The notes beneath the pieces were generated by a model, which had not been told where the DNA came from, made no database searches, and saw nothing but the letters and a program-made list of their open reading frames with translations. From contig JBBQSO010000007.1 of assembly GCA_038213805.1 (NCBI GenBank), positions 9,127-73,126 of the forward strand: DNA of 64,000 bases, in the 5' to 3' direction. The translations under genes were made by a program, and so were the position numbers. The stretch is from Planctomycetota bacterium. GTDB lineage: Bacteria > Planctomycetota > UBA11346. Of this stretch, positions 11,553-58,109 are shown piece by piece. How positions within the stretch are numbered: position 1 is the stretch's first letter; every line of letters starts with the position of its first letter.

Positions 11553-11948
11553 GTGAAGCCCCTCACCCATCCCGCGCTGCAGGACATCACCGTCGAGGGC
11601 ATCCTCCACGCCCTGTCGGATCCAGTGCGGGTGGCGATCTACGTGGGCATCATCAAGGCCGCCTGCGCGCACAGTTGCGCCAGCCTGCTGACGGTGTGCG
11701 ACCGGCCGATCCCCAAGTCGACGCTCTCCCAGCACTTCAAGGCGCTGCGCGAAGCCGGCCTGATCCGCGGCGAGCGGCACGGCGTCGAGATGCGCAACAC
11801 CTCGCGCTGTATCGAAATCGAGCAACGTTTCCCGGGCCTGATCGCCGCCATCCTCCAGGCGCACAGCCTGCAGATCGCGGAACGGGCCCAGGCCATGTCC
11901 CCCAGGCGCAAGCCGGCCGTCCGCGGCGCGGTGCGACCCGCCAGCTGA
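11553..11948 (+). CDS. ArsR/SmtB-family HTH transcriptional regulator
   Basis: ILHALSDPVRVAIYVGI...LSQHFKALREAGLIRGERHG winged-helix signature. Divergent from the SDR gene and immediately upstream of the kinase/receiver pair. Confidence 0.8.
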   Translation: MKPLTHPALQDITVEGILHALSDPVRVAIYVGIIKAACAHSCASLLTVCDRPIPKSTLSQHFKALREAGLIRGERHGVEMRNTSRCIEIEQRFPGLIAAILQAHSLQIAERAQAMSPRRKPAVRGAVRPAS

Positions 11949-11985
11949 CGCCGCCACCCATCCACGGACCGACCTCCAGGCCCCT

Positions 11986-13134
11986 ATGACCGATCCCGCC
12001 CCCGCGTCCCAGGCCGCAGCACCGGAGGGCTGGTGGGACCAGCTGTGGTCGTCGTCCTTCATGCCGCACGGTTGCTGCTACAACTGGCAGCCGGGGATCA
12101 TCTGGTCGCACGTCATCTCGGACGCGATCATCTTTCTCGCGTACTACTCCATCCCGCTCATCCTCTTCGCCTTCGTGCGCAAGCGGAGGGACATCCCCTT
12201 CAACGCGATCTTCATCATCTTCGGCGTCTTCATCCTGGCCTGCGGCACCACCCACCTGCTCGACGTGATCGATGTGTACGTGCCGCTCTACCGGCTGGCG
12301 GCGGCGGTGAAGATCGTCACCGCCATCGTCTCGATCGCCGCGGTGTGGATGCTGGTGCCGGTGCTGCCGCAGGCCCTCGCCCTGCCCTCGCTCAAGACCA
12401 CGAACGCGCGCCTGGAATCGCTGACCGGCGATCTGCGCCGCTCGAACGCCGAACTCGAGCAGTTCGCCTACATCGCCTCGCACGATCTGCAGGAACCGCT
12501 GCGCATGATCAGCGTGCACCTGGACCTGCTCAGCCGCAGCCACGGCGCCCGCCTCGACGACAAGGGCCGCAGCCACATCGACGTCGCGACCGCGGGCGCT
12601 GAGCGCATGCGCCAGCTGATCTCCTCGCTGCTCGCTTTTGCACGCATCGATCAGATCCCGACGGCCACCGAGGCGGTCGACGCCAACCTGGCGGTGGCCG
12701 ACGCCCTGCAGAACCTTGCCGAGCAAATCGCCCAGTCCCGCGCCGAGATCGCGTGCGATCCCCTGCCGCGCGTGCCCATGGAGCGCGGGCAGCTGACCCT
12801 CATCTTCCAGAACCTGATCAGCAACGCCGTCAAGTTCGGCCGCGCGGACTCCGGACCGCCGCAGGTCGCAGTCCGCGCCGCCGCCAGGGACGGCGAGGTG
12901 GTGTTCTCGGTCCAGGACAACGGCATCGGCATCGATCCAGCCCATTTCGCCCGCATATTCCTGATCTTCCAACGCATCCACGACCGCAAGACCTTCGCGG
13001 GCAGCGGCATCGGCTTGGCGAGCGTCAAGAAGGTCGTCGAGCGGCATGGCGGCCGCATCTGGGTCGAGTCCAGGCCCGGCGCGGGCGCGACCTTCCATTT
13101 CTCAATCCCTGACCACCGCGAGGCGGCACCATGA
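11986..13134 (+). CDS. Sensor histidine kinase with an N-terminal ethylene-binding-domain (ETR1-like, 3 TM helices) fused directly to HisKA and HATPase_c
   Basis: TM1 VISDAIIFLAYYSIPLILFAFV, TM2 FGVFILACGTTHLL and TM3 AAAVKIVTAIVSIAAVWMLVPVLP align with Arabidopsis ETR1 (YISDFFIAIAYFSIPLELIYFV / FGAFIVLCGATHLI / AKVLTAVVSCATALMLVHIIP). The Cu-ligand Cys and His keep the same spacing (CGxxH). H-box IASHDLQEPLRM, and a G-box GSGIGLASVKK. Confidence 0.85.
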   Translation: MTDPAPASQAAAPEGWWDQLWSSSFMPHGCCYNWQPGIIWSHVISDAIIFLAYYSIPLILFAFVRKRRDIPFNAIFIIFGVFILACGTTHLLDVIDVYVPLYRLAAAVKIVTAIVSIAAVWMLVPVLPQALALPSLKTTNARLESLTGDLRRSNAELEQFAYIASHDLQEPLRMISVHLDLLSRSHGARLDDKGRSHIDVATAGAERMRQLISSLLAFARIDQIPTATEAVDANLAVADALQNLAEQIAQSRAEIACDPLPRVPMERGQLTLIFQNLISNAVKFGRADSGPPQVAVRAAARDGEVVFSVQDNGIGIDPAHFARIFLIFQRIHDRKTFAGSGIGLASVKKVVERHGGRIWVESRPGAGATFHFSIPDHREAAP

Positions 13135-13786: not shown

Positions 13787-15142
13787 CTAAACTTCAGCGA
13801 GCGGCTGGTCCGCATCCCCGAAGCGCGGCACCTTCAGCCCCATCTTGTCCATCAGCGACAGGTGCAGACGGCACATCTGCCGCGCCGGCTTGCCGGTGTA
13901 GTCGAGCACCCGCCCGCCGGCGATGCGCCCGCCGGCGCCGCCAACGAGCACCATCGGCAGCTGATCGTTGTTGTGCTGGCCGGTCATCATGCTTGAACCG
14001 TACACCAGCATGGAATTGTCGAGCAGGGTGCGCGGTCCTTCCTGGATCGCGTCGAGCCGGCGCGCGAGGTAGGCGAGCTGCTCGAGGAAGAAGACGTTGA
14101 CCTTGAGCCAGTCCGCCGAGTCCGAGTGCGAGAGCAGGTGGTGGATCATGTAGTCCACGCCGAGGTCCGGATAGCGCTGCGAGGAGTGGTCGTTGTTGAG
14201 CTTGAGGGTGGCGAGGCGCGTGGTGTCGGTCTGGAAGCCGAGCACCACGATGTCGCACATCAGACGCATGTGCTCGCCGAGGTGCTCGGGCAGGCCGTCG
14301 GCGGGGCGCGCGCGGTCGGGCTTGGCGAGTGTCGGCTGCCAGTCCCGCGCGGTGCGCACGCGCGCCCCGGCGAGACGCTTTTCGACGTCGCGCACCGATT
14401 CCAGGTACTCGTCGAATTTACGCTGATCGCCGCTGCCCAGCTCGCGGCGCAGGCCGCCGGCGTCGTCCAGCACCGCGTCGAGCACGCCCTGGTCGCCGCG
14501 CGCGGCGCCGTCGCTGAACAGCCGGTCGAAGGCCAGCGCCGGGTAGATCTCGAGCGGCGTCGGCGTGGTCGGCGAGCTCCACGAGATGTGCGAGCTGTAG
14601 AGCATCGAGTAGTTCTTGTGCACCGACGGATTCGACTTCTCGCAGCCCAGCACCAGGCTCGGCACGGTCGTCTGGTCGCCGAAGCGCTGCGCCAGCAGCT
14701 GGTCGACGCTGGTGCCGGAACGGATCTCGCCACCGGAGGCGAGCGGCGCGCCAGAGAGCCAGTTGCCGGTCTGTGAGCTGTGGATGTTGCCCTTGGTCGC
14801 CTCGTCGTGGTAGAGGCCACGGATGAACAGCAGTTTTTTGCGGAAATCGGCCAGCGGCGCCAGCACTTTGCCCAACTCCATCTCCGCGCCGGCGCCCTTC
14901 GCCCACCATTCCTTGCTGTGGAAGCCGTTGCCCGAGAACAGCACCGCGAGACGCACCGGCGCTTCCGGTACGCCGCCCTGCGCCGCCGGTTCACCACCCC
15001 AGGCGGGCAGCGATTCGAGCCACGGCAGCGCCATGGCGACGCCCAGACCGCGCAGCAGGGTGCGGCGCGAGAGCCCGCGCGCGCGGTGCGCGCCGGGGAC
15101 GCGGTGGATGCGGTCGTTCATGGGTGCTCCGTTGTGACTCAT
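13787..15142 (-). CDS. DUF1552 domain protein (Tat-signal, partner of DUF1592/PSD proteins)
   Basis: Twin-arginine signal SRRTLLRGLGVAMALPW. Conserved DUF1552 blocks (FHSKEWW, HLLSHSDSADWLKVNVFFLEQLAYLARRLDAIQEG, MVLVGGAGGRIAGGRVLDY). Its start overlaps the stop of the upstream gene. Confidence 0.85.
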   Translation of the reverse strand: MSHNGAPMNDRIHRVPGAHRARGLSRRTLLRGLGVAMALPWLESLPAWGGEPAAQGGVPEAPVRLAVLFSGNGFHSKEWWAKGAGAEMELGKVLAPLADFRKKLLFIRGLYHDEATKGNIHSSQTGNWLSGAPLASGGEIRSGTSVDQLLAQRFGDQTTVPSLVLGCEKSNPSVHKNYSMLYSSHISWSSPTTPTPLEIYPALAFDRLFSDGAARGDQGVLDAVLDDAGGLRRELGSGDQRKFDEYLESVRDVEKRLAGARVRTARDWQPTLAKPDRARPADGLPEHLGEHMRLMCDIVVLGFQTDTTRLATLKLNNDHSSQRYPDLGVDYMIHHLLSHSDSADWLKVNVFFLEQLAYLARRLDAIQEGPRTLLDNSMLVYGSSMMTGQHNNDQLPMVLVGGAGGRIAGGRVLDYTGKPARQMCRLHLSLMDKMGLKVPRFGDADQPLAEV

Positions 15143-18100
15143 GGTTCATCGTCCTCGGACACCGCGCCGCGGCCGCGGATCTCGCGGAACTGGCGGCTGC
15201 GCACGATCAGCTCGACCGCGGTGCCCGCGCGCCAGCCGTTCGCGGCGAGCGCGGACTGCATCTCGTGGAGCAGCGGCTCGTCGGACAGGCGCACGGCGCG
15301 ACCGAGGGCGAAACCGAGCAGCTTGCGGCAGAACTGCCCGGTGAAGGCGGCCGCCCGCGGCCCGGCGAGGTAGGCGCGCAGGCCGTCCAGACCGGCGAGG
15401 CGCGTGCCGTCGGCGGTGGTCGCGGTGATATCGAGCGGTTTGCCGCCCGGGTCGCGGTCCTGGGCGTGGCCGATACCGTCGAAGCCCTCGAGCGCGAAAC
15501 CGAAGGCATCGAAGCGCTGGTGGCAGCCGGCGCAGCGCGCGTCGCTGACGTGGCGTTCGGTCAGTGCGCGCACGCTCAGGGCGGCGTCGGCCTGCTCCGG
15601 GAAGGGCGGCACGTCCTTGGGTGGGCGCGGCAGGCGCTCGCCGAGGAGGGTCTCGGAGACCCACGCGCCGCGCAGGATCGGACTGGTGCGCGAGGCGCCC
15701 GATTGCTTCGCAAGGATCGCGGCCTGGCCGAGGATGCCGCCGCGGCCAAGCGCGCGCAGGCCCTCGACGCGCCGCCACTCCGGACCGTCCGCGCTCCATG
15801 GGATGCCGTAGTGAGCGGCCAGCGCCTTGTCGACGAAGGTGTGGTCGGCGTCGAGCAGGCTGAGCACGGAGCGGTCGCTCTGAAAGAGGTCGGCGAGGAA
15901 GCGGATGGATTCCTCGTACATGCTGCCGCGCAGCGCGAGGAAGGCGGGGAAGGCCTTCTCGCTCTTCTCGTCGAGCTGGTCGAAACCGCGCACGTGCAGC
16001 CAGCTGCAGCCGAACTCGACCGCCAGGCGGCGCGCGCGCGCATCGCCCAGCAGGCGCCGCGCCTGCGCAGCGAGCGCGGCCGGATCGCGCAGCGCGCCGG
16101 AGGCCGCGGCCGCGCGCAGGGCAGCGTCGGGCGGGCCGGACCACAGGAAGTACGAGAGGCGGGTGGCCAGCTCCCAGTCGCCGACCGGGCCCTGTGCGGC
16201 GCCCGGCACCGGACGCTCGGCACGGTAGAGGAAGGCCGGCGCCGCGAGCACGCGCGTCAGTACCAGGCGCAGCGCCTCGTCGTGGTGCAGACCCTCGGTG
16301 CGCCAGGTGCCGTAGCGAGCGCGCAAGGCCTGCTGCTCGTCCGCGGTCAGCGGCCGGCGCCACGCCTGCGCCGCGAAGGCGAGCGTGGCGTCGAGCTGCA
16401 CCGGTTCGGCGTCGAGCAGGCGCTGGCGCAAGGCGGCGGCGCGCGCCGTGATCGGCTGGCGCAGCGGCTCGAGCTTACGCGGGTCGCCGTCCTGGGTGGC
16501 GTACTGCAGGATCTGCTCGAAGGCGTCGACGGTGGTCAGGGCGTCCTGGCTGACGAAGCGCAGGCGGTCCCACAGGCGGTCGAGCTGCACGCGCTGCGCG
16601 TCGTCCAGCATCAGGGTGACCAGCGGGCCGTCCTCGCGGTAGAACAGCGTCAGGGTGATGACCTCGTCCGCGGGCACTATCTTGGTGTAGCACAGCGCGG
16701 CCGGGAAGAGCGCGCGGAAATCGGCGTAGGCAGAGGTCCAACGCGCCTGCGCGGCGGCGCCGGCGATGATCGGCAACGTCGGGTCCGGAAGGAGGCCGGC
16801 GGCGGCCGGGGCGGTGGCGGCGAGCCGCGCCTGAGCGCTGGCCTCCGCCGCCGCGGGACCGGGCGCACAGGCCGCGGTGGCGACCAGCTCGCAGCCGGCG
16901 ACCAGTCCGGCAGGCAGGCGCACGGCGAGGATGGTGCCAATCGCCACGCACAGGTCGTCGGCGTCGCAGGCGGCGCCGTCGGGGCGCTTGCCGAACAGCG
17001 CCGGATCGAGGCCCCACGGCGAGTCCGCGGCCGGGACCGCCGGCGTGGTGGCCGCGGCGAGCGGGCCGGCGAACGAGGCGAGCTGCCGGTAGAGCTTCGC
17101 GTCCGCGCCGTCGCCCGCCGGAGCCGGTGCCAGCAGCAGGCGCTGCAGATCATCAGCGAGGCGCGCCTGCGTGGCCGGATCGGCGGTGGCCTGCCAGCGC
17201 GCCAAAAGCGAGTCTGCGGGCGCGCCGGGGTGCTCGCTCATCACCGCGGTCGGCTCGCTGTAGAAATGCCACACCGCGGGATGCCCAGCGGCGTCGGCGT
17301 GCGGGTTGCCGGCAAGGATATCGCCCGACACCTCGCGCGTCAGCGACCACGTGACCGGGTTCGGGCCGTCACCGGTCAGGGTCAGCTCGACGTCGGTGAG
17401 GTCGCAGGAATGGTCGGCATTGCGCGGTCCGACCAGCAGCGCGATCAGGTCGCCCGGCTGCACGGTGACGCCGTCGAGCGGGCCGAAGGGCACGCTGTCG
17501 GCGTTGATCGCGGTGCCGGCGGCCAGACGCCGGCGCGCGCTGCCGCGGCGCAGCTCAAGCACCCACTCCACGCCGTTGCCGCATTCCGGATGCGCGTGCA
17601 TGACCGCGCCGGCGATGCGCAGCGTCGCGGTCACCGGGCTTTGCCAGCCCACCGCCACGCAGCGCGTCGGCGACGGGTGCACGACCACGCCGTGCGCCTT
17701 CATCTTGCCCGGGATGCGCACCGCCTGGTCGGAGGCGTTGGCCATCACCGACGGCGTTTCTGTCGAACCCCAGCCGGTGACGAACTCGTAGGCGCCGGCG
17801 CGGGGCAGGCGGTTGTCGAAGTGTTCAAGCGCGAGGTCGCCGGCGAAGCCGACGCCGAGATAGCCGAGCCACGCAGCGAGCACACCGGGATCGATATGGT
17901 GGCGCTGCGCCAGCTGCGCGACGTCGCCATGCGCGTCGCCAGCGGCGTCGACCGCGGCGGCGAGCGCCGCCGCGGTGCCGGCGAAGGTGCGCACGCGCCG
18001 CGCGAGCAGGTCGTCGACGTAGGCGCGCGCCACGCGCAGCGGCAGCGGCGGCCGGCCGGGGATGACCAGACGCGGCTGTCGCCATACCACCAGGCCGGCA

Positions 18101-19224
18101 GGCGCGCCGGGCACCGTCGCCAGCGCCGACAGGTACGCAGTCGCCTCGCCGCTGGTGTGGTCGGCGGGGAAGGCCAGCTTCAGCTCCTGCTCGGCGACCA
18201 GGGGCGAGACCGGCTCCATCCAGGCGGTGGCGCCGCCGGTGACGCCGATGTCGCCCACACTGTTGAAGCGAAACAGTGCGCGCTGCCACTGCGCAACTGC
18301 ATCGGCCAAGCCGGCGGCGTCGCCGGCACGCCAGCGCGCGCGCAGACCGTCGAGCAGTTCCGAGGGCGGGCCGCCGGCGAGGGACGCGATCAAATTGGCA
18401 AGGTAGCGCGGATTGAGGCCATGCGCGCGCGCCACCGCGGCCGCGTCACCGCCGGCGCGCAGTTCGTTGGCCGCAGCCAGGTAGCGCTCCAGCGGCAGGC
18501 GGCCGCCCTGGTTCTTGTCCATGGGGATGCCCTGCCGGGTCACCATGTCGCTGCTGCCGGTCGCGCTGAAGCCTGCGTAGAAGGCGCGCAGCTGCGCGAC
18601 CAGTTCATCGGTGGCATCACGACGCGTGGTCGCCGCCGAGAAGCCGATGCCGTCCGGCAGCAGCAGCGCGTGGGCGGCGACGGCCTTGGCCGCATCCAGG
18701 TACTTGCCGAGCAGCGCCGGCGACATCGCCAGGGCCATGCCGGTGTTGCTGAAGCCTTCGCCGGCGGCGCCGTCGGCCGGGAACTCGCGCGCCACGTCCA
18801 GGCTCTCGACGCCGGTCAGGTCGCGCAGCGTGTAGGTGTACTCGGCATTCGACAGGCGGCGCAGCACCACCGGACCGGGATCGCCCGCGGTCTGGCGGGC
18901 GACCACGTCGAGCGCGCCGCGCACGCCGGCGAGCAGGCGCGAACGCTCCTCGGCGGTCGACTGCGGTTTGCCCGCGGGCGGCATGTCGCCATCCGCGACC
19001 TGCTCGAGCACCTTCTGCCAGATGCGCGCGTGGCGGGCGAGGCGGCCATCGGCGACGACGCTTTCGAGGTCGAGGTCGCCCTTGTGCTTGGCCTGCGAGT
19101 GGCAGGTCAGGCAGCGGTCCTTGAGGATCGGCGTAACGGCGGCGAGCGGTGCGGCGCTCTCCGCGGACGAAACGGTGGCGGCGCAGGCGAACAGCGCGGC
19201 GACGAGCAGGCGGCGGGCGCGCAT
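15139..19224 (-). CDS. Large PSD-family protein (cytochrome-c-like N-terminus plus DUF1587/DUF1592/DUF1595/DUF1588/DUF1585-type domains)
   Basis: 1361 aa with a signal peptide and a CLTCHS heme-like motif near the N-terminus. The usual DUF1592-class architecture is found next to a DUF1552 gene. Confidence 0.8.
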   Translation of the reverse strand: MRARRLLVAALFACAATVSSAESAAPLAAVTPILKDRCLTCHSQAKHKGDLDLESVVADGRLARHARIWQKVLEQVADGDMPPAGKPQSTAEERSRLLAGVRGALDVVARQTAGDPGPVVLRRLSNAEYTYTLRDLTGVESLDVAREFPADGAAGEGFSNTGMALAMSPALLGKYLDAAKAVAAHALLLPDGIGFSAATTRRDATDELVAQLRAFYAGFSATGSSDMVTRQGIPMDKNQGGRLPLERYLAAANELRAGGDAAAVARAHGLNPRYLANLIASLAGGPPSELLDGLRARWRAGDAAGLADAVAQWQRALFRFNSVGDIGVTGGATAWMEPVSPLVAEQELKLAFPADHTSGEATAYLSALATVPGAPAGLVVWRQPRLVIPGRPPLPLRVARAYVDDLLARRVRTFAGTAAALAAAVDAAGDAHGDVAQLAQRHHIDPGVLAAWLGYLGVGFAGDLALEHFDNRLPRAGAYEFVTGWGSTETPSVMANASDQAVRIPGKMKAHGVVVHPSPTRCVAVGWQSPVTATLRIAGAVMHAHPECGNGVEWVLELRRGSARRRLAAGTAINADSVPFGPLDGVTVQPGDLIALLVGPRNADHSCDLTDVELTLTGDGPNPVTWSLTREVSGDILAGNPHADAAGHPAVWHFYSEPTAVMSEHPGAPADSLLARWQATADPATQARLADDLQRLLLAPAPAGDGADAKLYRQLASFAGPLAAATTPAVPAADSPWGLDPALFGKRPDGAACDADDLCVAIGTILAVRLPAGLVAGCELVATAACAPGPAAAEASAQARLAATAPAAAGLLPDPTLPIIAGAAAQARWTSAYADFRALFPAALCYTKIVPADEVITLTLFYREDGPLVTLMLDDAQRVQLDRLWDRLRFVSQDALTTVDAFEQILQYATQDGDPRKLEPLRQPITARAAALRQRLLDAEPVQLDATLAFAAQAWRRPLTADEQQALRARYGTWRTEGLHHDEALRLVLTRVLAAPAFLYRAERPVPGAAQGPVGDWELATRLSYFLWSGPPDAALRAAAASGALRDPAALAAQARRLLGDARARRLAVEFGCSWLHVRGFDQLDEKSEKAFPAFLALRGSMYEESIRFLADLFQSDRSVLSLLDADHTFVDKALAAHYGIPWSADGPEWRRVEGLRALGRGGILGQAAILAKQSGASRTSPILRGAWVSETLLGERLPRPPKDVPPFPEQADAALSVRALTERHVSDARCAGCHQRFDAFGFALEGFDGIGHAQDRDPGGKPLDITATTADGTRLAGLDGLRAYLAGPRAAAFTGQFCRKLLGFALGRAVRLSDEPLLHEMQSALAANGWRAGTAVELIVRSRQFREIRGRGAVSEDDEP

Positions 19225-19225
19225 G

Positions 19226-19906
19226 TCAGGCGTCCCCTGCGGCGGCGGCGGCGCGCGGGATCCAGTCCTCCCAGCTCAGCACGTGCGCGCGCAGGTGCTC
19301 CTCGCAGACGGCCGGGGAGCGGCTGGTGAACAGGCGGATGATCTCGGTGTGCGCGCGCACGGTCTCGGCGCGCACCTGGCGGGTGCGGCGCTCGTGCAAG
19401 CGGTGCAGGCGGCCCAGCCACATGCCGAGCTCCCAGCGCAGGGCGCGCCAGGCGCGCAACAGGCGGGCGTTGCCGCTGGCGGCGAGGATGAGCTCGTGGA
19501 ATTCCAGATCGAGGCGGGTGATCTCGGCGATCGAGGTGGCGCGCGCAGTCGCGGCGACGTTGGCCATCAGCGCCGCGGGATCGGCGCGCAGCTGCGGCGC
19601 GGCGAGACGCGCCGCCAACGGTTCGAGCGCCACGCGCATGGTGAAGAGCTCTTCGAAGTCCTGGCGGGTCAGGCCGCGCACGTAGGCGCGGCCGGTGGGA
19701 GAGAAGCGCACCAGGCCTTCGCGCTCGAGCACCACCAGCGCCTCGCGCACCGGCACCCGGCTGACCCCCAGGCGCCGCGCCACCACGGCCTCGGCCAGGC
19801 GGTCGCCGGGGGCGAGGACTTCGGCGATGATGTCGGCGCGCAGCTGCGCGGCGGCGGCGTCGGAGCGGGGCAGGGGTCGCGCAGCGGCGGGGGCGGTGGT
19901 GGTCAT
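19226..19906 (-). CDS. GntR-family (FadR/FCD-type) transcriptional regulator
   Basis: Internal Met start MTTTAPAAARPL. HTH block RLAEAVVARRLGVSRVPVREALVVLEREGLVRF followed by an FCD-like helical C-domain. Its stop overlaps the start of the DUF1592 gene, so it likely forms an operon with the GntR gene first. Confidence 0.8.
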   Translation of the reverse strand: MTTTAPAAARPLPRSDAAAAQLRADIIAEVLAPGDRLAEAVVARRLGVSRVPVREALVVLEREGLVRFSPTGRAYVRGLTRQDFEELFTMRVALEPLAARLAAPQLRADPAALMANVAATARATSIAEITRLDLEFHELILAASGNARLLRAWRALRWELGMWLGRLHRLHERRTRQVRAETVRAHTEIIRLFTSRSPAVCEEHLRAHVLSWEDWIPRAAAAAGDA

Positions 19907-19910
19907 GGTG

Positions 19911-19943
19911 TTCGGTATACCGTTCTGGGAACAGTATACCGAA
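19911..19943. promoter_or_regulatory. Candidate GntR operator: inverted 10-bp arms TTCGGTATAC ... GTATACCGAA, each containing a GGTATACC / AGTATACC palindrome
   Basis: TTCGGTATACCGttctgggaaCAGTATACCGAA lies 5-40 bp upstream of the GntR start, in the divergent region shared with the beta-lactamase-family gene. GGT-AT-ACC matches the generic GntR-family operator pattern (GT-N-AC). A third related site CCGGATACCGG is at about 19961. Confidence 0.4.
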
Positions 19944-20063
19944 TCTTCCAACGGCCGTTGCCGGATACCGGGCGCGGTGGGTCTGCTACCGGACCAGGTC
20001 CATGAGATCGCTCGGCGACGCCACCGCAGTCGCGCCGTAGAGCTTTCCCGGAGCCTGCATCCC

Positions 20064-21302
20064 ATGCCTTTACGCCTACTCAGCGCCGCCCGGCTCAGCG
20101 CCTGCCTGCTCGCGTCCGTCTTGTCCGCCGCCGCCGACGACTACTTCCCCCCGCCCGACAGCGCCGGCGGCTGGCGCGTGCCCGCGGACGCGGCGGCAAC
20201 GCGGACGCTCGGCGGCATGGACCCGGAGCGCCTGGCGCAGGCCGGCGAGCAGGCGCAGCGCTGCGGGGCCAACGTCGGGCTGCTGGTGGTGCGCCACGGC
20301 TATCTGGTCTACGAGCGCTATTGGGGCCGCGCGCACCGCGACGCCAACCCCGACATGGCCTCCACCGGCAAGGCCTTCACCAGCATCGCCTGCGGCATCA
20401 TGCTCGAGAAGTTCCGCGACCAGTTCCCGACCGGGCTCGGTCAGAAGGTGTTCACCCAGACGTACCTGCCCGAGGCCTTCCCGCTCGATGATCCGCGCCG
20501 CACGCAGATCACCCTCGGTCAGCTGCTGTGCATGAGCGGCGGCTACCACGGCGAGGGTGGCAGCCCGGGGGTGGTCGACGGCAAGGTCGTGCCGCTGACG
20601 CCGGTGCCGGGGCAGGATCTCAAGGACCTCGACGGCAGTTCGCTGCGCACCGCGCTGTGGACCGATCCCGGCGCGGGCTATTCCTATTCCTCACCGGAGC
20701 CGCACATCGCCTCGATGGTGCTGCGCCGCGTCGCCGGCATGGAGCTCAAGGACTGCATCGATCAGTGGCTGGCGAAACCGCTGGGCTTCGGCGCGTGGAA
20801 CTACTGCCTATTCCGCGGCTCCATCACCCTGCCGCATGCCAACGGCGCAGGCAGCATCGCGCTGCATGCCACCGACGCGCTGCGCTTCGCCTACCTGCTG
20901 CTGCACCAGGGGCGCTGGGCCGGTCAGCAGCTGGTGCCGGCCGCCTACGTGGCCCAGTGCGGGCGACCGTCGCCGTTCAACCCGCACACGCCTTTCAGCC
21001 TGATGTTCGAGAACAATTCCGATGGCCACGTCGCGGGCGCACCGCGCGACGCCTTCTGGAAATCGGGCGCTGGCGGCTTCTGCATCTACGTCGTGCCCTC
21101 GCTCGACCTGGTGCTGTACAAGATGGGCGGCAGTGCCGGGCAGTATCAAGCGGAACTCACCGGCCTGCCCCAGCCCCCCTCGCCCGAGGCGCGCGACGAC
21201 TGGAAGCCGATCCCGCGCACGCCCTTCCACGACGGCTCGCTGACCGGCGACGACGGCCTGCGCCGCGTGCTGGAGATGGTCGCGGCGGCGGCGCGGGACT
21301 GA
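20064..21302 (+). CDS. Serine hydrolase, beta-lactamase/transpeptidase-like family (secreted)
   Basis: Signal peptide MPLRLLSAARLSACLLASVLSAAA. S-x-x-K motif in MASTGKAF. Class-C-like architecture of 412 aa. Confidence 0.8.
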   Translation: MPLRLLSAARLSACLLASVLSAAADDYFPPPDSAGGWRVPADAAATRTLGGMDPERLAQAGEQAQRCGANVGLLVVRHGYLVYERYWGRAHRDANPDMASTGKAFTSIACGIMLEKFRDQFPTGLGQKVFTQTYLPEAFPLDDPRRTQITLGQLLCMSGGYHGEGGSPGVVDGKVVPLTPVPGQDLKDLDGSSLRTALWTDPGAGYSYSSPEPHIASMVLRRVAGMELKDCIDQWLAKPLGFGAWNYCLFRGSITLPHANGAGSIALHATDALRFAYLLLHQGRWAGQQLVPAAYVAQCGRPSPFNPHTPFSLMFENNSDGHVAGAPRDAFWKSGAGGFCIYVVPSLDLVLYKMGGSAGQYQAELTGLPQPPSPEARDDWKPIPRTPFHDGSLTGDDGLRRVLEMVAAAARD

Positions 21303-21314
21303 GCGTCCGCCCCG

Positions 21315-22589
21315 TCACGGCACCAGGTCGCCGATCAGCATGATCCCGCCCACGTACCAGTTGGTGCCCGCGTACTTGGCCGGGTCCTTCTCCATATCCG
21401 GGCGGTTTGGGTCGAAGAGGATCTTCGCCTTGTCCGGCACCACCTGGTCGATGTGCACCTCGACGCGGTGCACTGCATCGGGCAGTTCCGAGGCGATGCG
21501 CAACGACGCGAGGCGGTGATAGGTGCAGAAGCCGTCGATGCGCGCCATGGCCGTGGGCGCGCCGCCATCGACGCTGATCAGCACCTGGCCGCAGTCTGGG
21601 CCGAGCAGGTCGTAAATCGACACCGCACTGCCCTTGAAGCGGAATGCCAGGGTGGTGCCGGGTTTGTTGGCGCGCCACAGGCTGGGCACGCGATCGCCGA
21701 AGCTCTTCGCGCGCGCATCCGTGGCGGCGTCGAGCTTTATCCAGCCGTCGCCCGGCTTGGCCTGCTCGAGCGGTACAAGCTTGGCCTTTTCATAATTGTC
21801 GGCGACGAGCGGGGCGCGCAGCGCATGCGGCTTGTGCTTGCCAGCGAGGAGCTTGGGCAGGTGGCGCGTCAGGATCTGCGTGTACAGATCGTGGCCCGCA
21901 TCGGTGGGGTGGACGTTGTCCTCGACGAACACCAGCTTGTCGCCGAGCGCCACACGCTCCGCGTCGCTGGGCTTGCTGGTGCGGAAGACCAGCGTCCCGG
22001 CGCGTTCGCGCGCGGAGACCTCGACACCGAAGTGCACTGACGGGATGGCATAATGGTCGGCCAGCGACTCCATCGCGCTGGCAGCGCGCGGAAAATGGCC
22101 GTCCTTGAAGTCGCCAAGCATGCCGCCGGTCAGGGTGTAGACGTAACAGATGTCGGTGGCCGGATCTGCCGCCCAGGTCTGGCGGATGATGCCCTCCATG
22201 CAGCGCTGGATCTGCAACGGATCAGTGCCGCCGTCGTTGACCGCGAATTCGACGAACACCAGGTCGGGCTTGTGCTGCAGCACGTCGTGGCCGCAGCGGT
22301 AGACGCCGAGGTCTGAACCCGTGCCGCCGATGGCGGCGTTGATCTCGTGGATATCCGACTTCGGATACTGCTGTTTGAACCACGCCAGGCTCTTCACCCG
22401 CCAGCCGTTGGCCGCGGTGATGCTGCCGCCGAAGTAGGCGATGGCGATCGGCTTGCCGGCGGCGAGTTTGGCTGCGACGTTGGGCAGCCCGCCGCGCTCC
22501 TGGCACTCGACCGCGGGACGCAGGGGAAAGGCCTCAGCGGCGTGGAGGGCGGCAAGGACGGACAGCAGGAGCAGCAGGATGCGGTGCAT
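21315..22589 (-). CDS. SGNH/GDSL-family hydrolase with C-terminal beta-sandwich domain (secreted)
   Basis: Internal Met start MHRILLLLLSVLAALHA (signal peptide). Block I IAYFGGSITAANG, and DAGHDLYTQIL near the catalytic His. Confidence 0.7.
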   Translation of the reverse strand: MHRILLLLLSVLAALHAAEAFPLRPAVECQERGGLPNVAAKLAAGKPIAIAYFGGSITAANGWRVKSLAWFKQQYPKSDIHEINAAIGGTGSDLGVYRCGHDVLQHKPDLVFVEFAVNDGGTDPLQIQRCMEGIIRQTWAADPATDICYVYTLTGGMLGDFKDGHFPRAASAMESLADHYAIPSVHFGVEVSARERAGTLVFRTSKPSDAERVALGDKLVFVEDNVHPTDAGHDLYTQILTRHLPKLLAGKHKPHALRAPLVADNYEKAKLVPLEQAKPGDGWIKLDAATDARAKSFGDRVPSLWRANKPGTTLAFRFKGSAVSIYDLLGPDCGQVLISVDGGAPTAMARIDGFCTYHRLASLRIASELPDAVHRVEVHIDQVVPDKAKILFDPNRPDMEKDPAKYAGTNWYVGGIMLIGDLVP

Positions 22590-25445: not shown

Positions 25446-28091
25446 ATGCGCATGCCATTCCTCCCCGTCGCACTCGCTCTGGCTGCCTGCGCGCCGCTGG
25501 CCGCCTCCGACGTGTTCGCAGATTTCGCCATCCCCGACCTGCTGCCGCTGGCCAAAAAACACAGCGTGATGAACACCGGCGCGATCAAGCTCAAGAGCCA
25601 CTACGACCGCGACCTAGGCAAGCTCGGCGAACTGAAGGCGGGCTCGCTGCGCCTCGACCTGTCGATCGGCAAGCGCGACGATGCGCCGATGTGGTGGGAC
25701 GTGGTCAATGGCCCGGATCCCGACCACCTTGGCTACAATTTCGCCAACGTTGACTGGCTGGATGGTGAACTGACCAAGCAGGACACCCTGCCCTACTGGG
25801 GCCTCGTCTATATCCCGATACCATTCCAGGATCCACGTCAGCCAGCGGACGACTGGCGCTTCCTCGATCCCGACCGCTTCAACTGGGACCGCTGGCAGGA
25901 GGCTTCACGCACCTTCGCGGGTCACGTGCGCGGCCTGCACCAGCATGGCTACCTCGAGGCGCTGAACGAGCCCGACCTGTACCTGCCGTGGATCACCGGA
26001 ACCGACACCGAAAACCTCAAGAAGGGATATTTCCTGCGCGTGCCCAACATGGACACCCAGCTTGAGCCGACCACCTTCCAGATGTACGTGCGCACGGCCA
26101 AGGGCTTCAAGGAGGGCGATCCGGACGCGGTCGTCGGCGGTCCGGCGCTGGCGGGCGCAGCGATGCAGTGGACGGGCCCGTTCCTCGACTATGTCGCGGG
26201 CAACCAGGCGCCGATCGACTTCTTCTCGTTCCACGTGATCAGCGGCGACGATCCGTTCAGCGTGGTCATCCCGCGCACCCAGGGCGTGCGCAATCAGCTC
26301 GCCGAACGCGGCTGGGCGCACTCGGTCGAGATCCACATGAACGAGTACAACGCCTACGGTCATCCCTGGGACCAGGACACCAACTCCAGCGACCTCGCCG
26401 TGCATGTCATCGAGAACTGCCACGACCTGCTCGGCCAGCACGACCTGACCGTGATCAGCTGGGCACAGGCGATGGACAACAGCCAGGTACAGGGCGCAGT
26501 GAACGGCGACCAGACCGCCGGCCTGATCGACTGGGAGGGCAACCGCCGGCGCGCCTTCAGCGCCTTCGCGATGTACGGCGACATCCCGATGCCGAGCTTT
26601 CGCAGCAGCGAAACTGGCAGCATCCACACCATGGCCGGCGCCGACGCGGGCAAGGCCGGCATCATCGTGTGGAACAGTGATGGCGCGCAGGCCAGCGACG
26701 TGACCGTGACCGCGCACCACATCCCCTTCGCGAACGCGGTGTTCCGCCTGGTGGTGATCGACCCGACCGGCACCGGCAACCCACAGGGCCTGAACCCGTC
26801 GGTGCAGGAGACCCAGGCGATCACCAATCCGATGTTCCGCATCGTGCACCTGCCGCCGCGTTCAGTCGCCTACCTGTCGTGGACCAGCACCACCGCACCA
26901 GCGCTGGCGGCGCCCGCAGGCCAGGTGGTGCGCGTCCACCACGACTACCCGAACCGCGCCACCCACTCGTGGGCGGAATACGACCGCCGCGCCTGGACCG
27001 CGTGCCTGGGCATGGACGACGCGAACGACCTGCAGATCGTCGGCACCACGGTGCGCGAGCTCGCAACCACGGTGCACGTGTCCTGCCGCACGGCCGGCGC
27101 GCCCGCCAGCGGCACGCTGGGCATGCGCATCGACTACCTGACCGGCGGCGGCTATACGAAGAGCGTGCTCTTCCACGGCGGCCTGGCCGCTGGCTTCACT
27201 CTCCCGTGGGGCAGCGGGCGCCCCGTCGACCAGAGCGTGGCGATCGCGCTCGGTGACGCCGACATCATTCCGGGCGATTTCGCACCGGCGGGCTGGCTCG
27301 GGCAGGCGGTGGTGACGTACGTGATGAACCATACTGGGAACGGCACGCGTGCGACCTTCGTGCTGAGCGCCGGTGGGTCGACGGGGACGGGAACAGGAAC
27401 GGGAACGGGAACGGGAACGGGAACGGGAACGGGAACGGGAACGGGAACGGGAACCGGAACCGGTACTGGCACAGGGACCGGGACGGGTCTGCCCACCGGA
27501 GGCAGCGGCGTCGGCCTGACCGGCCAGTACTTCGCCACGAGAGACCTGAGCGGCCCGGCGCTGACGCGCACCGACCCGGTGATCGATTTCACCTGGGACA
27601 CCACGCCACCCATCGCGGGCATCGGTCTGGCCGACTACAGCGTACGCTGGACCGGCACCATCCAGGCGCCGACCAGCGAGCCCTACACCTTCCACGCGTT
27701 CAGCGACGATGGCGTGCGCCTGACGGTCGACGGCCACCAGCTCATCGATCATTGGGTCGACCAGGGGGTGACGGAATCCACCGGCACCATCGCCCTGACC
27801 GCCGGGCACAGCTACGCCATCACCATGGAATACTACCAGCACGCTGGCGGCGCGACCGCGCGGCTGCTGTGGAGCACGCCCTCAAGTCCGACCGCCGCCG
27901 TGGTGCCCCAGTCGCGGCTCATTCCGGCGGCGGGTGGCGCAGCGGGGACGGGAACGGGTGGCGGTACTCCGGCGATCTCAAGCACGAACGGCAGCGGCTG
28001 CGGCTCAGGAATCGCGGCGGTGGTGCTGATGCTGAGCGCACTGTCGATGATACGCCTGCGCGGCGCGGGTGGGCGTCAGCCGCCGGAATGA
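25446..28091 (+). CDS. Secreted clan GH-A glycoside hydrolase (GH39/GH5-like) with (Gly-Thr)n linker, PA14 domain and Cys-Gly/TM/Arg C-terminal sorting-like tail
   Basis: ATG preceded by GAGG. Signal peptide MRMPFLPVALALAACAPLAA. LEALNEPDL motif (NEP acid/base of clan GH-A). A run of about 19 GT dipeptides. PA14 block (GQYFATRDLSGP...YTFHAFSDDGVRLTVDG...YAITMEYYQ). Ends GSGCGSGIAAVVLMLSALSMIRLRGAGGRQPPE. Confidence 0.8.
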   Translation: MRMPFLPVALALAACAPLAASDVFADFAIPDLLPLAKKHSVMNTGAIKLKSHYDRDLGKLGELKAGSLRLDLSIGKRDDAPMWWDVVNGPDPDHLGYNFANVDWLDGELTKQDTLPYWGLVYIPIPFQDPRQPADDWRFLDPDRFNWDRWQEASRTFAGHVRGLHQHGYLEALNEPDLYLPWITGTDTENLKKGYFLRVPNMDTQLEPTTFQMYVRTAKGFKEGDPDAVVGGPALAGAAMQWTGPFLDYVAGNQAPIDFFSFHVISGDDPFSVVIPRTQGVRNQLAERGWAHSVEIHMNEYNAYGHPWDQDTNSSDLAVHVIENCHDLLGQHDLTVISWAQAMDNSQVQGAVNGDQTAGLIDWEGNRRRAFSAFAMYGDIPMPSFRSSETGSIHTMAGADAGKAGIIVWNSDGAQASDVTVTAHHIPFANAVFRLVVIDPTGTGNPQGLNPSVQETQAITNPMFRIVHLPPRSVAYLSWTSTTAPALAAPAGQVVRVHHDYPNRATHSWAEYDRRAWTACLGMDDANDLQIVGTTVRELATTVHVSCRTAGAPASGTLGMRIDYLTGGGYTKSVLFHGGLAAGFTLPWGSGRPVDQSVAIALGDADIIPGDFAPAGWLGQAVVTYVMNHTGNGTRATFVLSAGGSTGTGTGTGTGTGTGTGTGTGTGTGTGTGTGTGTGTGLPTGGSGVGLTGQYFATRDLSGPALTRTDPVIDFTWDTTPPIAGIGLADYSVRWTGTIQAPTSEPYTFHAFSDDGVRLTVDGHQLIDHWVDQGVTESTGTIALTAGHSYAITMEYYQHAGGATARLLWSTPSSPTAAVVPQSRLIPAAGGAAGTGTGGGTPAISSTNGSGCGSGIAAVVLMLSALSMIRLRGAGGRQPPE
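27382..27487 (+). repeat. In-frame hexanucleotide repeat (GGGACG/GGAACG/GGAACC)n encoding a (Gly-Thr)n linker
   Basis: acggggacgggaacaggaacgggaacggga... runs for about 100 bp inside the GH-A/PA14 gene. Confidence 0.85.
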
Positions 28092-42939: not shown

Positions 42940-45900
42940 ATGAGCCTCGCTCCCCGCCGCGACACCACGCTGTCGATCCGCTCCTCGCGCCTGCTGTCGA
43001 CCGCCCTTGGCGGGCTTGGCTGCCTGGCCCTGTCCACCGCGGTGGCGGCGGCCGAGCCTGGGAACGTCACGCTCCAGGCGCAAACCGCGGAATCGGTCAC
43101 CCTGGCCAACGCCGGGGGTGATCGCGTCTTCGTGCGCGTGCTGAAACCGAATCTGCTGGAGGTCGATTACCGCCCCGGCAACCAGACCTCGCCAATGACG
43201 CTGATCATGGATCCCGGCTTCGCCGCGAAGACCTGGTCGCCGGGCACCGTCTCGATCGCCGATGGCGCGTCCGAGGTGGTGCTGACCACGTCGGCCATGG
43301 TCGTGCGCATCGCCAAGTCCCCCTGCCGCGTGAACGTCTACGAGACCGACGGCACGACGCGCATTTTCGGCGAGGCGGCCGCCGCGGGCATGACCGACGC
43401 GCGGGTGAAGTTCGAGTTCGACGCGAACCTCAACTGGTACGGCATCCAGTCCGCGCCCAGCACGCGCGGACGGGAGATGGGCTCCACGACCTTGGGCGAT
43501 TATGTGACCAAGACCTTCGTCACGCAGCTCACCCGGCAGAACGTCACGCCGGCCGTCGACCTGAACGCGCGCTGGCACGGCAGCGAGACCGGACCCTTCG
43601 CGTGGACGACCGGCGCCGCCAGCAAGCGCGGCTTCGGTGTGCTCTGGGACAACGATGGCGGCAGCGTCGCCTTCTCAAGCACCACGCTGGAGATGAACAA
43701 GACCAACGAGCGCTGCGTCAGCGCCGTCTCGTCGACCAAGCTGGACACCCTGTGGTTCGCCATGGTGGGCACGCCCACCGAAATCACCCAGGCGATGATC
43801 GAGCTCAGCGGCCGCCCCCAGATGTTCCCCAAGTACGCCCAGGGCTTCGGCAACACCGAGTGGGGCATCAACGAGGAGGAGCTGCGCTCGCACATCAACG
43901 CCTACCGCTCGCGCCACATCCCGCTCGACCACTTCATCCTCGATTTCGACTGGAAGGCGTGGGATCTGAACGACTACGGCAACTTCGAGTGGAACCTGCG
44001 CGCAACGAACGTCGCGGCCAGCGACTTCCGCGGCTTCCCCGCGGCCAGCGACACCACGCTCAAGACCTACACCGACGCCATGGGTGTGAAGCTGATGGGC
44101 ATCACCAAACCCCGCCTGCACGTCGACACCGTGCAGGGCGCGGTGATCACCGCGGGGGCGGCGACCGGGGCCACCTGGCGCAACGCCGGCAGCGTCGGCT
44201 GGTGGCTGCCGTCCGGTAGTCCGAGCACCTTCAAGACCGACTACTGGGGTTCGCAGCGCGGCCGCAGCGACAAGGTCGGCAACCTGAACTTCTTCATCCC
44301 CGCAGCGCGCGCCTGGTATGCGCAGAACAGCATCGACCGCGCCTTCGATAAGGGCATCGTCGGTTACTGGCACGATGAAGGCGACGAAGGCCCGGATTCG
44401 GGCGACATCCCGTCCGCGAGCAACTTCTACAATCCGCTCTACCAAGAAGGCATCTACACCTACCAGCGCGCCAACAAGCCGGGGACCCGCGTCTGGTCGA
44501 TGAACCGGCACTCGTACCTGGGTTCCCAGCGCTACGGCTATGGCGTCTGGAGCGGCGACATCAGCACCGACTGGCGCACGCTCAAGACCGAGGCGCCGCG
44601 CATGCTGCAGACCATCAACGCCGGCATGGCGCGCACGGGCACTGACGCGGGCGGGACCGCGGGAAGCGCGGATTCCATCGGCACGATCGCGACCGACGGC
44701 GTGAGCAAGAACGTCCCGACCGACGAGTTGTACGCGCGCTGGCTGCAATTCGCGGCCATGCAGCCGACTTTCCGCATCCACGGCGTCTACCTGATCAACC
44801 GCCAGCCGTGGTTCCACGGCAGCGAGGCCGAGATCGCGGCGACCGAGGTCATCCGCCTACGCTCGCGGCTGATGCCGTACATCTACGCGCACGACCGCAT
44901 TTACAGCGAGACGGGTGTGCCCTTCGTGCAGCCGCTGGTGTGGGACTATCCCAAGGATGCCAACGTCGCGGAGCGCACCGACGCGTGGATGTTCGGCCGC
45001 GCACTGCTGGCCGCTCCGATCCTCGAACCCCGCGCCACCGTCACCAGCCCCGACGGCAGCCTGTCGATGGCCGGGACCACCAGCAAGTCCATCTACCTGC
45101 CGGCGGGAACCTGGTACGACTACTTCCGCGGGACGGTGCACGCGGGCGGCGCCACTTTCATCTACCCGGTGTCCACGTCGACGCTGCGCGAACTCCCGCT
45201 CTTCATCAAGAAAGGCGCGATCATCCCCAGCCTGCCCACGGCGCTCGACCACGTCGCTGCCGCGCCCATCACCACGGTGCGCCTGGACATGTTCCCGGAC
45301 ACCGCGCTGACCAGCTTCACCTATTACGACGATGACGGCGTCAGCTACCAGTACGAGAGCGGAACCTTCTTCAAGCAGGCCGTGTCGGTGCAGCAGAGCG
45401 GGTCAACCGTCACCGTCGCCTTCGCCGACAAGCAGGGCGGATTCGCACCCGCGCTGCAGCACTATCTGATCGCGATCAACAAGTTCTCGGCAACCACGGT
45501 GGCCGGCTTCACCAGCTTCGCTTCGCAGGCCGCGCTGGAGGCTGCCTCCGGTGAAGGCTATGCCATCGGGTCGGGCGTGCACGGCAGCATCACGTACATC
45601 AAGGTCGCTGCAGGCTCTGCGCGCACCATCACCGCGACCGGGACGAATCCGGGTCTGGGCATTGCGACCACCACGCTGCCCGCGGCGACGCGGAATGCCC
45701 CCTATGACGCGCAGCTCGGCGCAGATGGTCTCGGCGCCAGCTCCACCTGGAGCGTCACGCCCGCCCTTCCCGCCGGCCTGGTCTTGGATGCGCGCACCGG
45801 GCGCATCACTGGTGCAGCGACTGTCGCGGGCAGCACCTCGTACACCTTCCAGGTGTCTTCGGGCGCGACCGCCAGCAAAGCGCTGACGCTGACCGTGACC

Positions 45901-55752: not shown

Positions 55753-56817
55753 TCACCAGTTGGTGGGCTCGGTACGCAGGCGCTGGATCCACAGGATGGT
55801 GCCGCCCATGTTGCGAGCATGGTTCTGGGTGCGGTACTCGCAGACGTCCTCGGTGTGCGAGGCGTTGAGGGGCCAGATCACATAGTGGTCGAATTCGCGG
55901 CCGCGCGAGTGCAGCAGATAATGGTAGTCCATGGCCATGCAGGCGCCGTTCCATTCGACGCGATAGAACAGGCGGCACTCGCTGGAGTTCAGGCTGGTAA
56001 ACAAGTTGGGGTCGTCGCCGAAGGCCGAGGTCTGGCCGGCGGCCTGGACCTCGCTCCAGCTGCGGAAGCCCAGGGTGCCGCCGCCGCCGCAGGTCACCAC
56101 GAAGGTCGCGCCGCCATCGCGGAACAGGCGGAACCACGACATGCCGGTGGAGTTGCCGCGCGGCCGCGCGTCCCCGGCCAGGTAGGCGGCCCAGTTGTTG
56201 TGCAACGTGCCATCGGCCTCGGTGATGGTCAGCGCCGCGCCCACGTTGGCGCCCAGGTCGCTGGCGAGCCAGCCGTTGCGCACCACCGGCTGAGGGTCCG
56301 GATTGCACAGGTAGGGCATGCCGAAACGCGCGTCGCCTTCGCCGACCGGCTGTGGCGAGACGGTGGTGCGGATCGGGTTGTAGGCGGCGGTCAGCTGCAC
56401 GGCGCAGGGCGCACGCTGCCGCACGTACATCGGGAAGCGACGGGAGCTGCCGAGCGGGAAGCGCGAGTCGTCGTCGACGTTGTCGCCGTAGTACTTGGGT
56501 CCGAGCTTGCCATCGCGCACGTCGATCCAGCCGAAGGTCTCGAGGTGATCGACCGGAGCGCCGCCGACGGCGGCGGGTTCCCAGCCGATGCGCGAGGCCT
56601 CCTGCAGATAGTTGCAGGCGGCGAGCAACATGATGCGCGCCTGCGATTCGCGCATGACGCTGGCCATCTCCTCGGCATCGCTGCGCATGCGCGCGAGGAA
56701 GGCAGCGGCAAGGGAGACCAGCAGCGCCGAGATGCCGGCGACCAGGATCAGAATGGTGGCCTGGCGCAACGGGCGGCGGGACGTGGACGTGGACGTGGAC
56801 GTGGACGTGGCGGGCAT
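55753..56817 (-). CDS. Hypothetical membrane-anchored protein in prepilin-like operon
   Basis: (ST)n tract, then an N-terminal TM helix ILILVAGISALLVSLAAAFLA. 354 aa. Tightly spaced (7 nt) behind the upstream prepilin-like gene. Confidence 0.5.
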   Translation of the reverse strand: MPATSTSTSTSTSRRPLRQATILILVAGISALLVSLAAAFLARMRSDAEEMASVMRESQARIMLLAACNYLQEASRIGWEPAAVGGAPVDHLETFGWIDVRDGKLGPKYYGDNVDDDSRFPLGSSRRFPMYVRQRAPCAVQLTAAYNPIRTTVSPQPVGEGDARFGMPYLCNPDPQPVVRNGWLASDLGANVGAALTITEADGTLHNNWAAYLAGDARPRGNSTGMSWFRLFRDGGATFVVTCGGGGTLGFRSWSEVQAAGQTSAFGDDPNLFTSLNSSECRLFYRVEWNGACMAMDYHYLLHSRGREFDHYVIWPLNASHTEDVCEYRTQNHARNMGGTILWIQRLRTEPTNW

Positions 56818-56824
56818 GGCGGTT

Positions 56825-58099: not shown

Positions 58100-58109
58100 G
58101 GTCGCCCTT

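Follow-up and report, generated by a model that had tools for sequence, protein, structure and literature searches.

The 64-kb window examined here (the whole analysed stretch of 64,000 nucleotides of the Planctomycetota contig JBBQSO010000007.1; ~68% GC) encodes three large exported proteins, P1 (GH39-like/PA14), P2 (GH31) and P3 (beta-helix/PA14), which share one kind of C-terminal tail: a C-G-[SL]-G motif, a hydrophobic helix of 14–19 residues and an arginine cluster. On balance, we think it probable that these tails are a planctomycete surface-sorting signal of the cysteine-containing tripartite type. A sequence-only reading of this DNA had already described the same architecture at the ends of a GH-A/PA14, a GH31 and a beta-helix protein; all three tails are present as it quoted them, and Pfam and NCBIfam agree with its domain identities (PA14 and a weak GH39 match in P1, GH31 in P2, Beta_helix and PA14 in P3). 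The three genes and their tails are laid out as follows.

25446 to 28091, forward strand: P1, exported GH39-like and PA14 tail carrier; the open reading frame (ORF) opens at 25305, with the probable start M48 at 25446.
27384 to 27485, forward strand: perfect (Gly-Thr)17 linker of P1 (residues 694–727), separating the catalytic region from PA14.
27990 to 28091, forward strand: C-terminus of P1, GSGCGSGIAAVVLMLSALSMIRLRGAGGRQPPE, then stop.
27999 to 28010, forward strand: signature motif C-G-S-G of P1 (Cys899).
28011 to 28052, forward strand: hydrophobic span of P1, IAAVVLMLSALSMI, 14 residues.
28053 to 28076, forward strand: basic cluster RLRGAGGR of P1, followed by QPPE and the stop codon (28089–28091).
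42940 to 47484, forward strand: P2, exported GH31 tail carrier, with GH31, He_PIG and two choice-of-anchor-D/DUF1573-like immunoglobulin-like (Ig) domains.
47395 to 47472, forward strand: whole tail of P2.
47395 to 47406, forward strand: signature C-G-L-G of P2.
47407 to 47451, forward strand: hydrophobic span of P2, QGIALVLMLGFSLMW.
47452 to 47472, forward strand: basic cluster RFRSGRR of P2.
60214 to 63207, reverse strand: P3, exported right-handed beta-helix and PA14 tail carrier; the ORF opens at 63387, with the probable start methionine at 63207 or 63183.
60295 to 60375, reverse strand: whole tail of P3.
60375 to 60364, reverse strand: signature C-G-S-G of P3.
60363 to 60307, reverse strand: hydrophobic span of P3, SLLGAAMILAALLTPGGII, 19 residues with one proline inside.
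60306 to 60295, reverse strand: RRRR cluster of P3.
60294 to 60217, reverse strand: unusual 26-residue extension, LALAKDPRCAPGRAAALGAPSCRTRT, with two further cysteines, found in P3 alone.

The closing residues of P1 and P2 read, at greater length, NGSGCGSGIAAVVLMLSALSMIRLRGAGGRQPPE and GSHGCGLGQGIALVLMLGFSLMWRFRSGRRPTG; P2 ends in HGCGLGQGIALVLMLGFSLMWRFRSGRRPTG directly before its stop codon. The P3 tail (KHPCGSGSLLGAAMILAALLTPGGIIRRRR, in longer form AKHPCGSGSLLGAAMILAALLTPGGIIRRRR) is followed by 26 more residues before the stop. The tripartite layout is complete in all three proteins, with P3 extending past its arginine cluster; this extension may reflect read-through or a shifted stop, or it may be a genuine cytoplasmic extension. 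Signal peptides were read from the sequence at the N-termini of all three proteins. That of P1, which follows M48, is MRMPFLPVALALAACAPLAAS, and orthologue N-termini align from this methionine. Among the neighbouring genes of the window are members of families characteristic of Planctomycetota (in Pfam/NCBIfam, PSCyt1/2/3, PSD2-5, DUF1552, DUF1549 and N_methyl prepilin-like proteins). The reference-genome scan gave one relative only: a contig from ‘uncultured Planctomycetota bacterium MFD04580.bin.2.58’ that is syntenic and has 93% amino-acid identity.

Including proteins from other contigs and metagenomes, we have assembled 11 examples of this tail, which belong to seven unrelated carrier families. 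The invariant core, C-G-[SLA]-G, directly abuts the hydrophobic span with no spacer; the cysteine is present in the signature motif of all 11, and the register (C-G-x-G, 14–15 hydrophobic residues, or 19 in P3, then arginine) is the same throughout. The motif had been given by the sequence-only reading as [HG]-x-C-G-[SL]-G: its C-G-x-G core holds, but what precedes it, ‘[HG]-x-C’, is no more than a tendency, as P1 has a serine at position −2.

Given the high GC content of the genome, its Gly/Ala/Arg-rich proteins, the shortness of the tails and the weak hidden Markov model (HMM) evidence for some of them, one could suppose a coincidental likeness of low-complexity C-termini. A six-frame scan of the window, which has hundreds of shadow ORFs rich in GC, found the architecture in no further ORF. 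In the ~20,500 predicted residues of the window CG.G occurs six times; three of these six sites sit exactly before the window’s only three C-terminal transmembrane (TM)-plus-basic tails, and the chance of all three falling in register is ~3e-11 to 1e-9. Together with the conservation of the tail in orthologues, the shadow-ORF scan and this in-register probability (~1e-9 or less) effectively refute coincidence.

Two proteins with 55% identity to P1, P0002 and P0003, end in GHRCGLG, a TM helix and RVRVAKRQR (GSSGHRCGLGFAVALLLLNALCLARVRVAKRQR and GSSGHRCGLGFALALLLLQALGLARVRAARRRY, respectively); compared with P1, the cysteine, both glycines and the arginine positions are invariant and the preceding linker diverges. 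The motif is kept as GSGCGAG in the 93% relative (L002/L003) and in P0044. Since the tail of the 93% relative, GSGCGAGIATAVLMLSALSLMRLRV, lies in another reading frame, the corresponding database protein, P0001, is a frameshifted call.

The public calls of P1 orthologues break at or near the (GT)17 stretch and are frameshifted or truncated: P0001 is a frameshifted 1097-residue fusion and P0044 a 193-residue fragment that begins just past the (GT)n repeat. This suggests either repeat-associated assembly or indel errors, or genuine length variation of the linker.

The tail also recurs on exported carriers unrelated to P1–P3 and located on other contigs or in metagenomes, in the same register:

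P0040, an esterase: GGGCGLGSG to RQLRGRR (GGGGCGLGSGLGLILTAAALGLRQLRGRR).
P0042, an esterase with PKD domains: GTGCGAG to FRRRN (GTGCGAGALVGLAAALLCLAGFRRRN).
P0045, a GH5 protein with Big_13: GHGCGSGS to WRLSIRWR (GGHGCGSGSALGLLMLAVGLFWRLSIRWR).
L009, an Ig-repeat protein: PTCGAGG to LRRRG (GPTCGAGGAAGVLLAGLGWIGLRRRG).

Three unrelated carriers lie within 64 kb and seven carrier families are spread across contigs. The sequence-only reading had tied the tail to three large glycan-active enzymes; all three do carry it, but as esterases and Ig-repeat proteins have it too, it is not specific to carbohydrate-active enzymes.

Both tail-bearing esterase genes, P0040 and P0042, are directly preceded by a pair of genes for an extracytoplasmic function (ECF) sigma factor and a FecR anti-sigma factor (L004, 8016–9934, and positions 178–2012 of the JGI contig of P0042); substrate-sensing regulation of these esterases is therefore suggested.

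In more distant homologues of the P1 catalytic domain the C-terminus is occupied by other sorting tails: P0008, P0010, P0011, P0016 and P0028 carry the Por_Secre_tail of the type IX secretion system (T9SS; PF18962), and P0009 ends in a VPEP-type, PEP-CTERM-like tail. The latter, together with the common tripartite layout, might point to a PEP-CTERM-like signal cleaved by exosortase; we regard this as very improbable, as the tails have no Pro-Glu-Pro motif, TIGR02595 and its relatives give no match and no exosortase gene occurs in any locus. With orthologue conservation and the unrelated carriers, these tail substitutions lend support to the earlier suggestion that the tails may be a lineage-specific sorting signal of the kind borne by exosortase, rhombosortase and myxosortase substrates.

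The Ig domain in front of the P2 tail belongs to Haft’s choice-of-anchor D/VesB type, which is defined by preceding alternative sorting signals. A metagenome harvest keyed on the peptide pattern PY[DN]WTV[ST]G of this upstream domain, and hence independent of the tails, retrieved nine loci; eight of them end in a tripartite tail, and seven of these eight have a cysteine at the signature position. The harvested tails are mostly of a spacer type, in which G-C-[STAV] is separated from the helix by 5–8 residues. In L012 (7523–18499; L013 is near-identical) three consecutive large Ig-repeat genes end in spacer-type cysteine tails (GNACSAQ, GGGACAS and GSGCSTE), and several such tails are encoded in L016/L017, contigs with the planctomycete markers PSCyt2/PSD1; the metagenome-assembled genome (MAG) GCA_964268005.1, with these markers too, has at least four.

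The near-identical C-termini of L008 and L010 differ by one residue in the poly-Gly run before the helix: GGGGGGGGALTSSG lacks the cysteine and GGGGGGGGCALTSSG has it. This may be a sequencing error in the homopolymeric codon run or a natural loss of the key residue.

Comparison with curated C-terminal sorting models was done with NCBIfam release 20.0 (June 2026) at E≤10, using both full proteins and tails alone. The sequence-only reading had left room for the tails falling into an already defined family; neither the MYXO-CTERM, GlyGly-CTERM and PEP-CTERM models nor any other curated CTERM model matches them. The sole CTERM response of the window tails was that of P3 to GVDTG-CTERM (15.6 against a cut-off of 29), which we rejected as sub-threshold, with the motif absent and no literature found. 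Control tails scanned alone did register: the spacer-type tail of L011 passes TIGR03382 (16.7 against the MYXO-CTERM cut-off of 15.85 bits), L015 equals the cut-off of TIGR03901.2 (20 bits) with 20.0, and the C-G-A-G tail of L009 scores 18.2. The scan can therefore detect such short domains, which places the C-G-x-G tails on the margin of what the MYXO-CTERM models cover, or outside it.

By the published rule, a cysteine in the signature motif is always found in Myxo-type and never in GlyGly-type signals (PMC3237569), which puts the tails closest to the Cys-type MYXO-CTERM/myxosortase group and not to PEP-CTERM or GlyGly-CTERM. Four Cys-containing tripartite signals (MYXO-, JDVT-, Synerg- and CGP-CTERM) have been assigned by Haft to CPBP/Rce1-family ‘myxosortases’ (10.1101/2023.06.07.544157); such tails are processed by these CPBP-family enzymes and need the type II secretion system (T2SS) (bioRxiv 10.1101/2023.06.07.544157; PMC11980579). 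For MYXO-CTERM, cleavage by MrtX, its dependence on the cysteine and a model of T2SS-dependent surface display have been worked out experimentally (PMC11980579).

The resemblance to MYXO-CTERM (TIGR03901/TIGR03382; MrtX/MrtC/MrtP) is the most extensive. Both are tripartite tails that close proteins exported by Sec, many of them hydrolytic or adhesive, with an invariant cysteine after a Gly/Ser-rich linker, one TM helix, an arginine cluster and many unrelated carriers; MYXO-CTERM display needs the T2SS, and T2SS genes lie near the tail genes here. Related spacer-type tails, moreover, reach or approach the MYXO-CTERM cut-offs. The planctomycete tail has, however, a single cysteine in C-G-x-G, whereas MYXO-CTERM frequently shows GCGC and has no charged residue or proline in its TM helix (the P3 span contains a proline); the window tails score nothing with either model, and the host, judged by its PSCyt1/2/3, PSD2-5 and DUF1552 genes and its nearest genome, a Planctomycetota MAG, belongs to another phylum.

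The remaining Cys-containing signals differ more clearly. CGP-CTERM (TIGR04288; archaeomyxosortase MrtA of Thermococcales) likewise opens a very short signal with an invariant Cys-Gly that runs straight into the TM helix, but there an invariant proline follows, in place of S, L or A and then glycine here; CGP-CTERM is archaeal, the tails at hand are bacterial, and its model gives no match. Synerg-CTERM (TIGR04564; MrtS, Synergistota) has a single invariant cysteine closing a stretch rich in Ser and Gly, with no spacer before the helix, but it carries an invariant proline in its Leu-rich helix that is absent from most of our tails, and it belongs to a different phylum; the window tails do not match its model, and the spacer-type tails of L011 and P0038 score 7.5 and 10.9 bits, the latter the highest among related tails and far below the cut-off of 22.5 bits. 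JDVT-CTERM (NF033191) is characterised by a near-invariant Asp-Pro before the helix and by a single target gene adjoining that of its protease, MrtJ; our tails have no DP motif, no adjacent CPBP gene and no match to its model. The lipobox of lipoproteins (Lgt/LspA) is also reminiscent, with a cysteine at the membrane boundary, small residues around it and an adjoining cleavable TM segment, and Lgt has been proposed as a candidate lipid transferase for MYXO-CTERM (PMC11980579). The topology is inverted, however, the signal being C-terminal with the cysteine before the helix, and there is no [LVI][ASTVI][GAS]C lipobox.

GlyGly-CTERM (TIGR03501) deserves separate attention, because the tails could be its Cys-bearing variant, cleaved by the serine protease rhombosortase, of the rhomboid family, and linked to phospholipid. 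It shares the tripartite layout, with small glycines (here G-x-G) right at the helix start, and its carriers are T2SS-dependent surface hydrolases. The Ig domain before the P2 tail is of the VesB type, VesB being the model rhombosortase substrate; a weak alignment (15.7 bits) joins the P0045 tail to the C-terminal end of a GlyGly-CTERM family model; and GlyGly-CTERM/rhombosortase has been reported in the planctomycete Rhodopirellula baltica, as well as in the verrucomicrobium Opitutus terrae (PMC3237569). Against this, the curators’ definition excludes a cysteine from the motif (PMC3237569), where the planctomycete tail always has one. TIGR03501 does not match any tail, even at a permissive E-value, the curated model responding to related tails is MYXO-CTERM, and neither the window nor any locus was found to contain a rhomboid gene. 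We therefore consider a GlyGly-CTERM variant rather improbable.

Taken together, the cysteine at its fixed register, the unrelated carriers and the exchangeable tails argue, with moderate confidence on our part, for a planctomycete sorting signal that is C-terminal, tripartite and Cys-containing (C-G-[SLA]-G without spacer, short TM span and cytoplasmic arginine cluster) and that would combine Sec export, anchoring by the C-terminal helix, cysteine lipidation, CPBP-type cleavage and T2SS-assisted surface display. The N-terminal signal peptide would direct the enzyme through Sec, and the C-terminal helix would then hold it in the cytoplasmic membrane, with the arginine cluster inside, following the positive-inside rule, and the cysteine at the outer membrane boundary. 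The cysteine could there be lipid-modified, after which an intramembrane protease encoded elsewhere, most likely a ‘myxosortase-like’ member of the CPBP/Rce1 family, would cut just after it and remove the helix; the lipid-anchored enzyme would finally reach the cell surface or outer membrane, with a T2SS-like system as the probable route. Lipidation, cleavage, the kind of protease and T2SS dependence are inferred by analogy with MYXO-CTERM/MrtX. What looks new is a so far undescribed planctomycete version of the MYXO-CTERM-like surface-sorting signals: no paper in the literature searched joins myxosortase/CPBP sorting with planctomycetes or describes a Cys-type planctomycete signal.

Several observations weigh against this proposal. 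At E≤10, the three window tails match neither MYXO-CTERM nor any other Cys-type model. In leave-one-family-out HMM comparisons the P1-family and P2 tails recover each other (E ~1e-4 to 1e-6), but those of P3, P0040 and L009 do not rise above noise; because this cross-family recognition is partial, the similarity past the four-residue motif and its register is generic (TM and arginine). The tails thus share the motif in fixed register together with a generic helix and arginine cluster, which is normal for such signals and limits homology claims; their alignment has no conserved run of 7–10 columns, and extended homology among all tails is not claimed. With a seven-tail profile, an exhaustive HMMER comparison against 1.84 billion representatives gave four matches at E≤1e-3, three of them self-matches or orthologues, leaving P0045 as the sole new carrier; the search was underpowered, and since the profile spans 45 positions only, the few matches mark a limit of power and not rarity. 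A word-indexed protein search with the three-tail alignment scored none of 551 candidates, the tail being too short and divergent for this method.

The processing enzyme is a further difficulty. We found no exosortase, rhomboid/rhombosortase or CPBP gene in the window or in any fetched tail-gene locus, so that the enzyme assignment rests on analogy; for the window, this agrees with the earlier suggestion that the enzyme is encoded elsewhere. Polytopic proteins of the window comprise only an RND pump, an ETR1-like kinase and a hydrolase that has three TM segments. As housekeeping sortases are usually unlinked to their targets, and myxosortase is never linked to its substrates (10.1101/2023.06.07.544157), the missing neighbour counts only weakly against our proposal. 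In addition, published occurrences of MYXO-CTERM and of NF040914, the core model for myxosortases, are confined to Myxococcota and Bradymonadales, Planctomycetota not being mentioned (10.1101/2023.06.07.544157), and a planctomycete enzyme must therefore be of another subfamily or protease class. Polytopic ORFs beside P0002 (L001) were considered as protease candidates and weakly rejected: one is GspF, and the others have no Pfam match and no CPBP EExxxR/HxxxN-type motifs by eye.

In four loci, tail genes have T2SS or pseudopilin genes beside them. Pseudopilin-like genes follow P3, a gspF follows P0002 in L001, a Secretin_N gene (19693–20232, on the opposite strand) follows the three tail genes of L012, and gspE lies ~5 kb from P0050. 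Since T2SS and pilin-like genes are abundant in planctomycetes, this neighbourhood is suggestive only.

The same difficulties speak for a simpler explanation, a plain unprocessed membrane anchor whose helix ties the enzymes to the cytoplasmic membrane on the side of the enlarged periplasm, with Cys-Gly-x-Gly serving as a helix cap or packing element. A TM helix with an arginine cluster suffices as a stop-transfer sequence, the window and loci yielded no processing enzyme, HMM recognition across families is weak, and polysaccharide uptake has been proposed to lead, in planctomycetes, into the periplasm (PMC12078418), where membrane-tethered glycosidases would fit. Such an anchor does not, however, sit well with a residue as rare as cysteine (1.2% of residues) being invariant at a fixed register across 11 tails of seven unrelated families, with homologues that swap the tail for T9SS or PEP-CTERM secretion or sorting tails, with hydrophobic spans as short as 14–15 residues or with a design resembling the experimentally cleaved MYXO-CTERM tails (PMC11980579). 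We hold it to be unlikely.

More tentatively, and with doubt prevailing over conviction, the sorting signal proposed here could be one form of a wider system. Planctomycetota may own an unrecognised housekeeping Cys-type sorting system with signatures varying between lineages (C-G-x-G here, G-C-[ST] with a spacer in, for example, GCA_964268005.1) and with a protease outside MrtX/C/P/J/S/A, which would lipid-anchor polysaccharide- and ester-degrading exoenzymes at the surface via a T2SS-like machine. If so, it would be the first defined surface-display route for degradative enzymes in Planctomycetota.

Planctomycetes carry many large polymer-degrading enzymes, for which the cell surface, the enlarged periplasm and release into the medium are the candidate destinations; a recognisable sorting tail would make the surface-anchored enzyme set predictable from sequence alone. 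If true, the proposed sorting signal would carry the CPBP/myxosortase principle of sorting, established only recently, into a further phylum, and it would hint at an intramembrane protease and a lipid transferase still to be discovered, which might be sought by phylogenetic profiling. Current NCBI annotation models do not see the tails, and the annotation of planctomycete MAGs would benefit from a lineage-specific HMM.

Directly downstream of P3, the window contains the following genes.

55753 to 60002, reverse strand: three genes in the same direction as P3, each encoding a protein with a single N-terminal TM segment.
52880 to 55687: PA14 and DUF6797 protein following this trio.

Two of the three proteins have prepilin/pseudopilin-type N-termini (ACGFTLFEV and SAFTLIEMM), and the third has the N-terminal TM segment only. 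They may be T2SS-like partners, or a pseudopilin module tied to the tail-bearing enzyme.

Some further observations are of interest in their own right. The window encodes a histidine kinase whose N-terminal membrane domain resembles that of the ethylene receptor ETR1 (11842–13131, forward strand; PF25487, E=3.8e-34); its gene adjoins those of an ArsR-type regulator and a response regulator. A complete rRNA operon lies in L001 (14477–19838, reverse strand), where it directly follows gspF and the tail gene of P0002, and comprises 16S (18283–19838), two tRNAs, 23S and 5S; it accounts for a 6-kb stretch of L001 without called genes, and its 16S is a marker for placing the organism that bears P0002. 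In L017 of GCA_964268005.1, ~2 kb downstream of a Cys-tail gene and unrelated to the tails, begins a cluster (14675–22481) coding for an HZS_alpha-like protein of the hydrazine-synthase alpha family, cytochrome c, two FGE-sulfatase proteins and ApbE, which is unusual for a planctomycete of ~60% GC.

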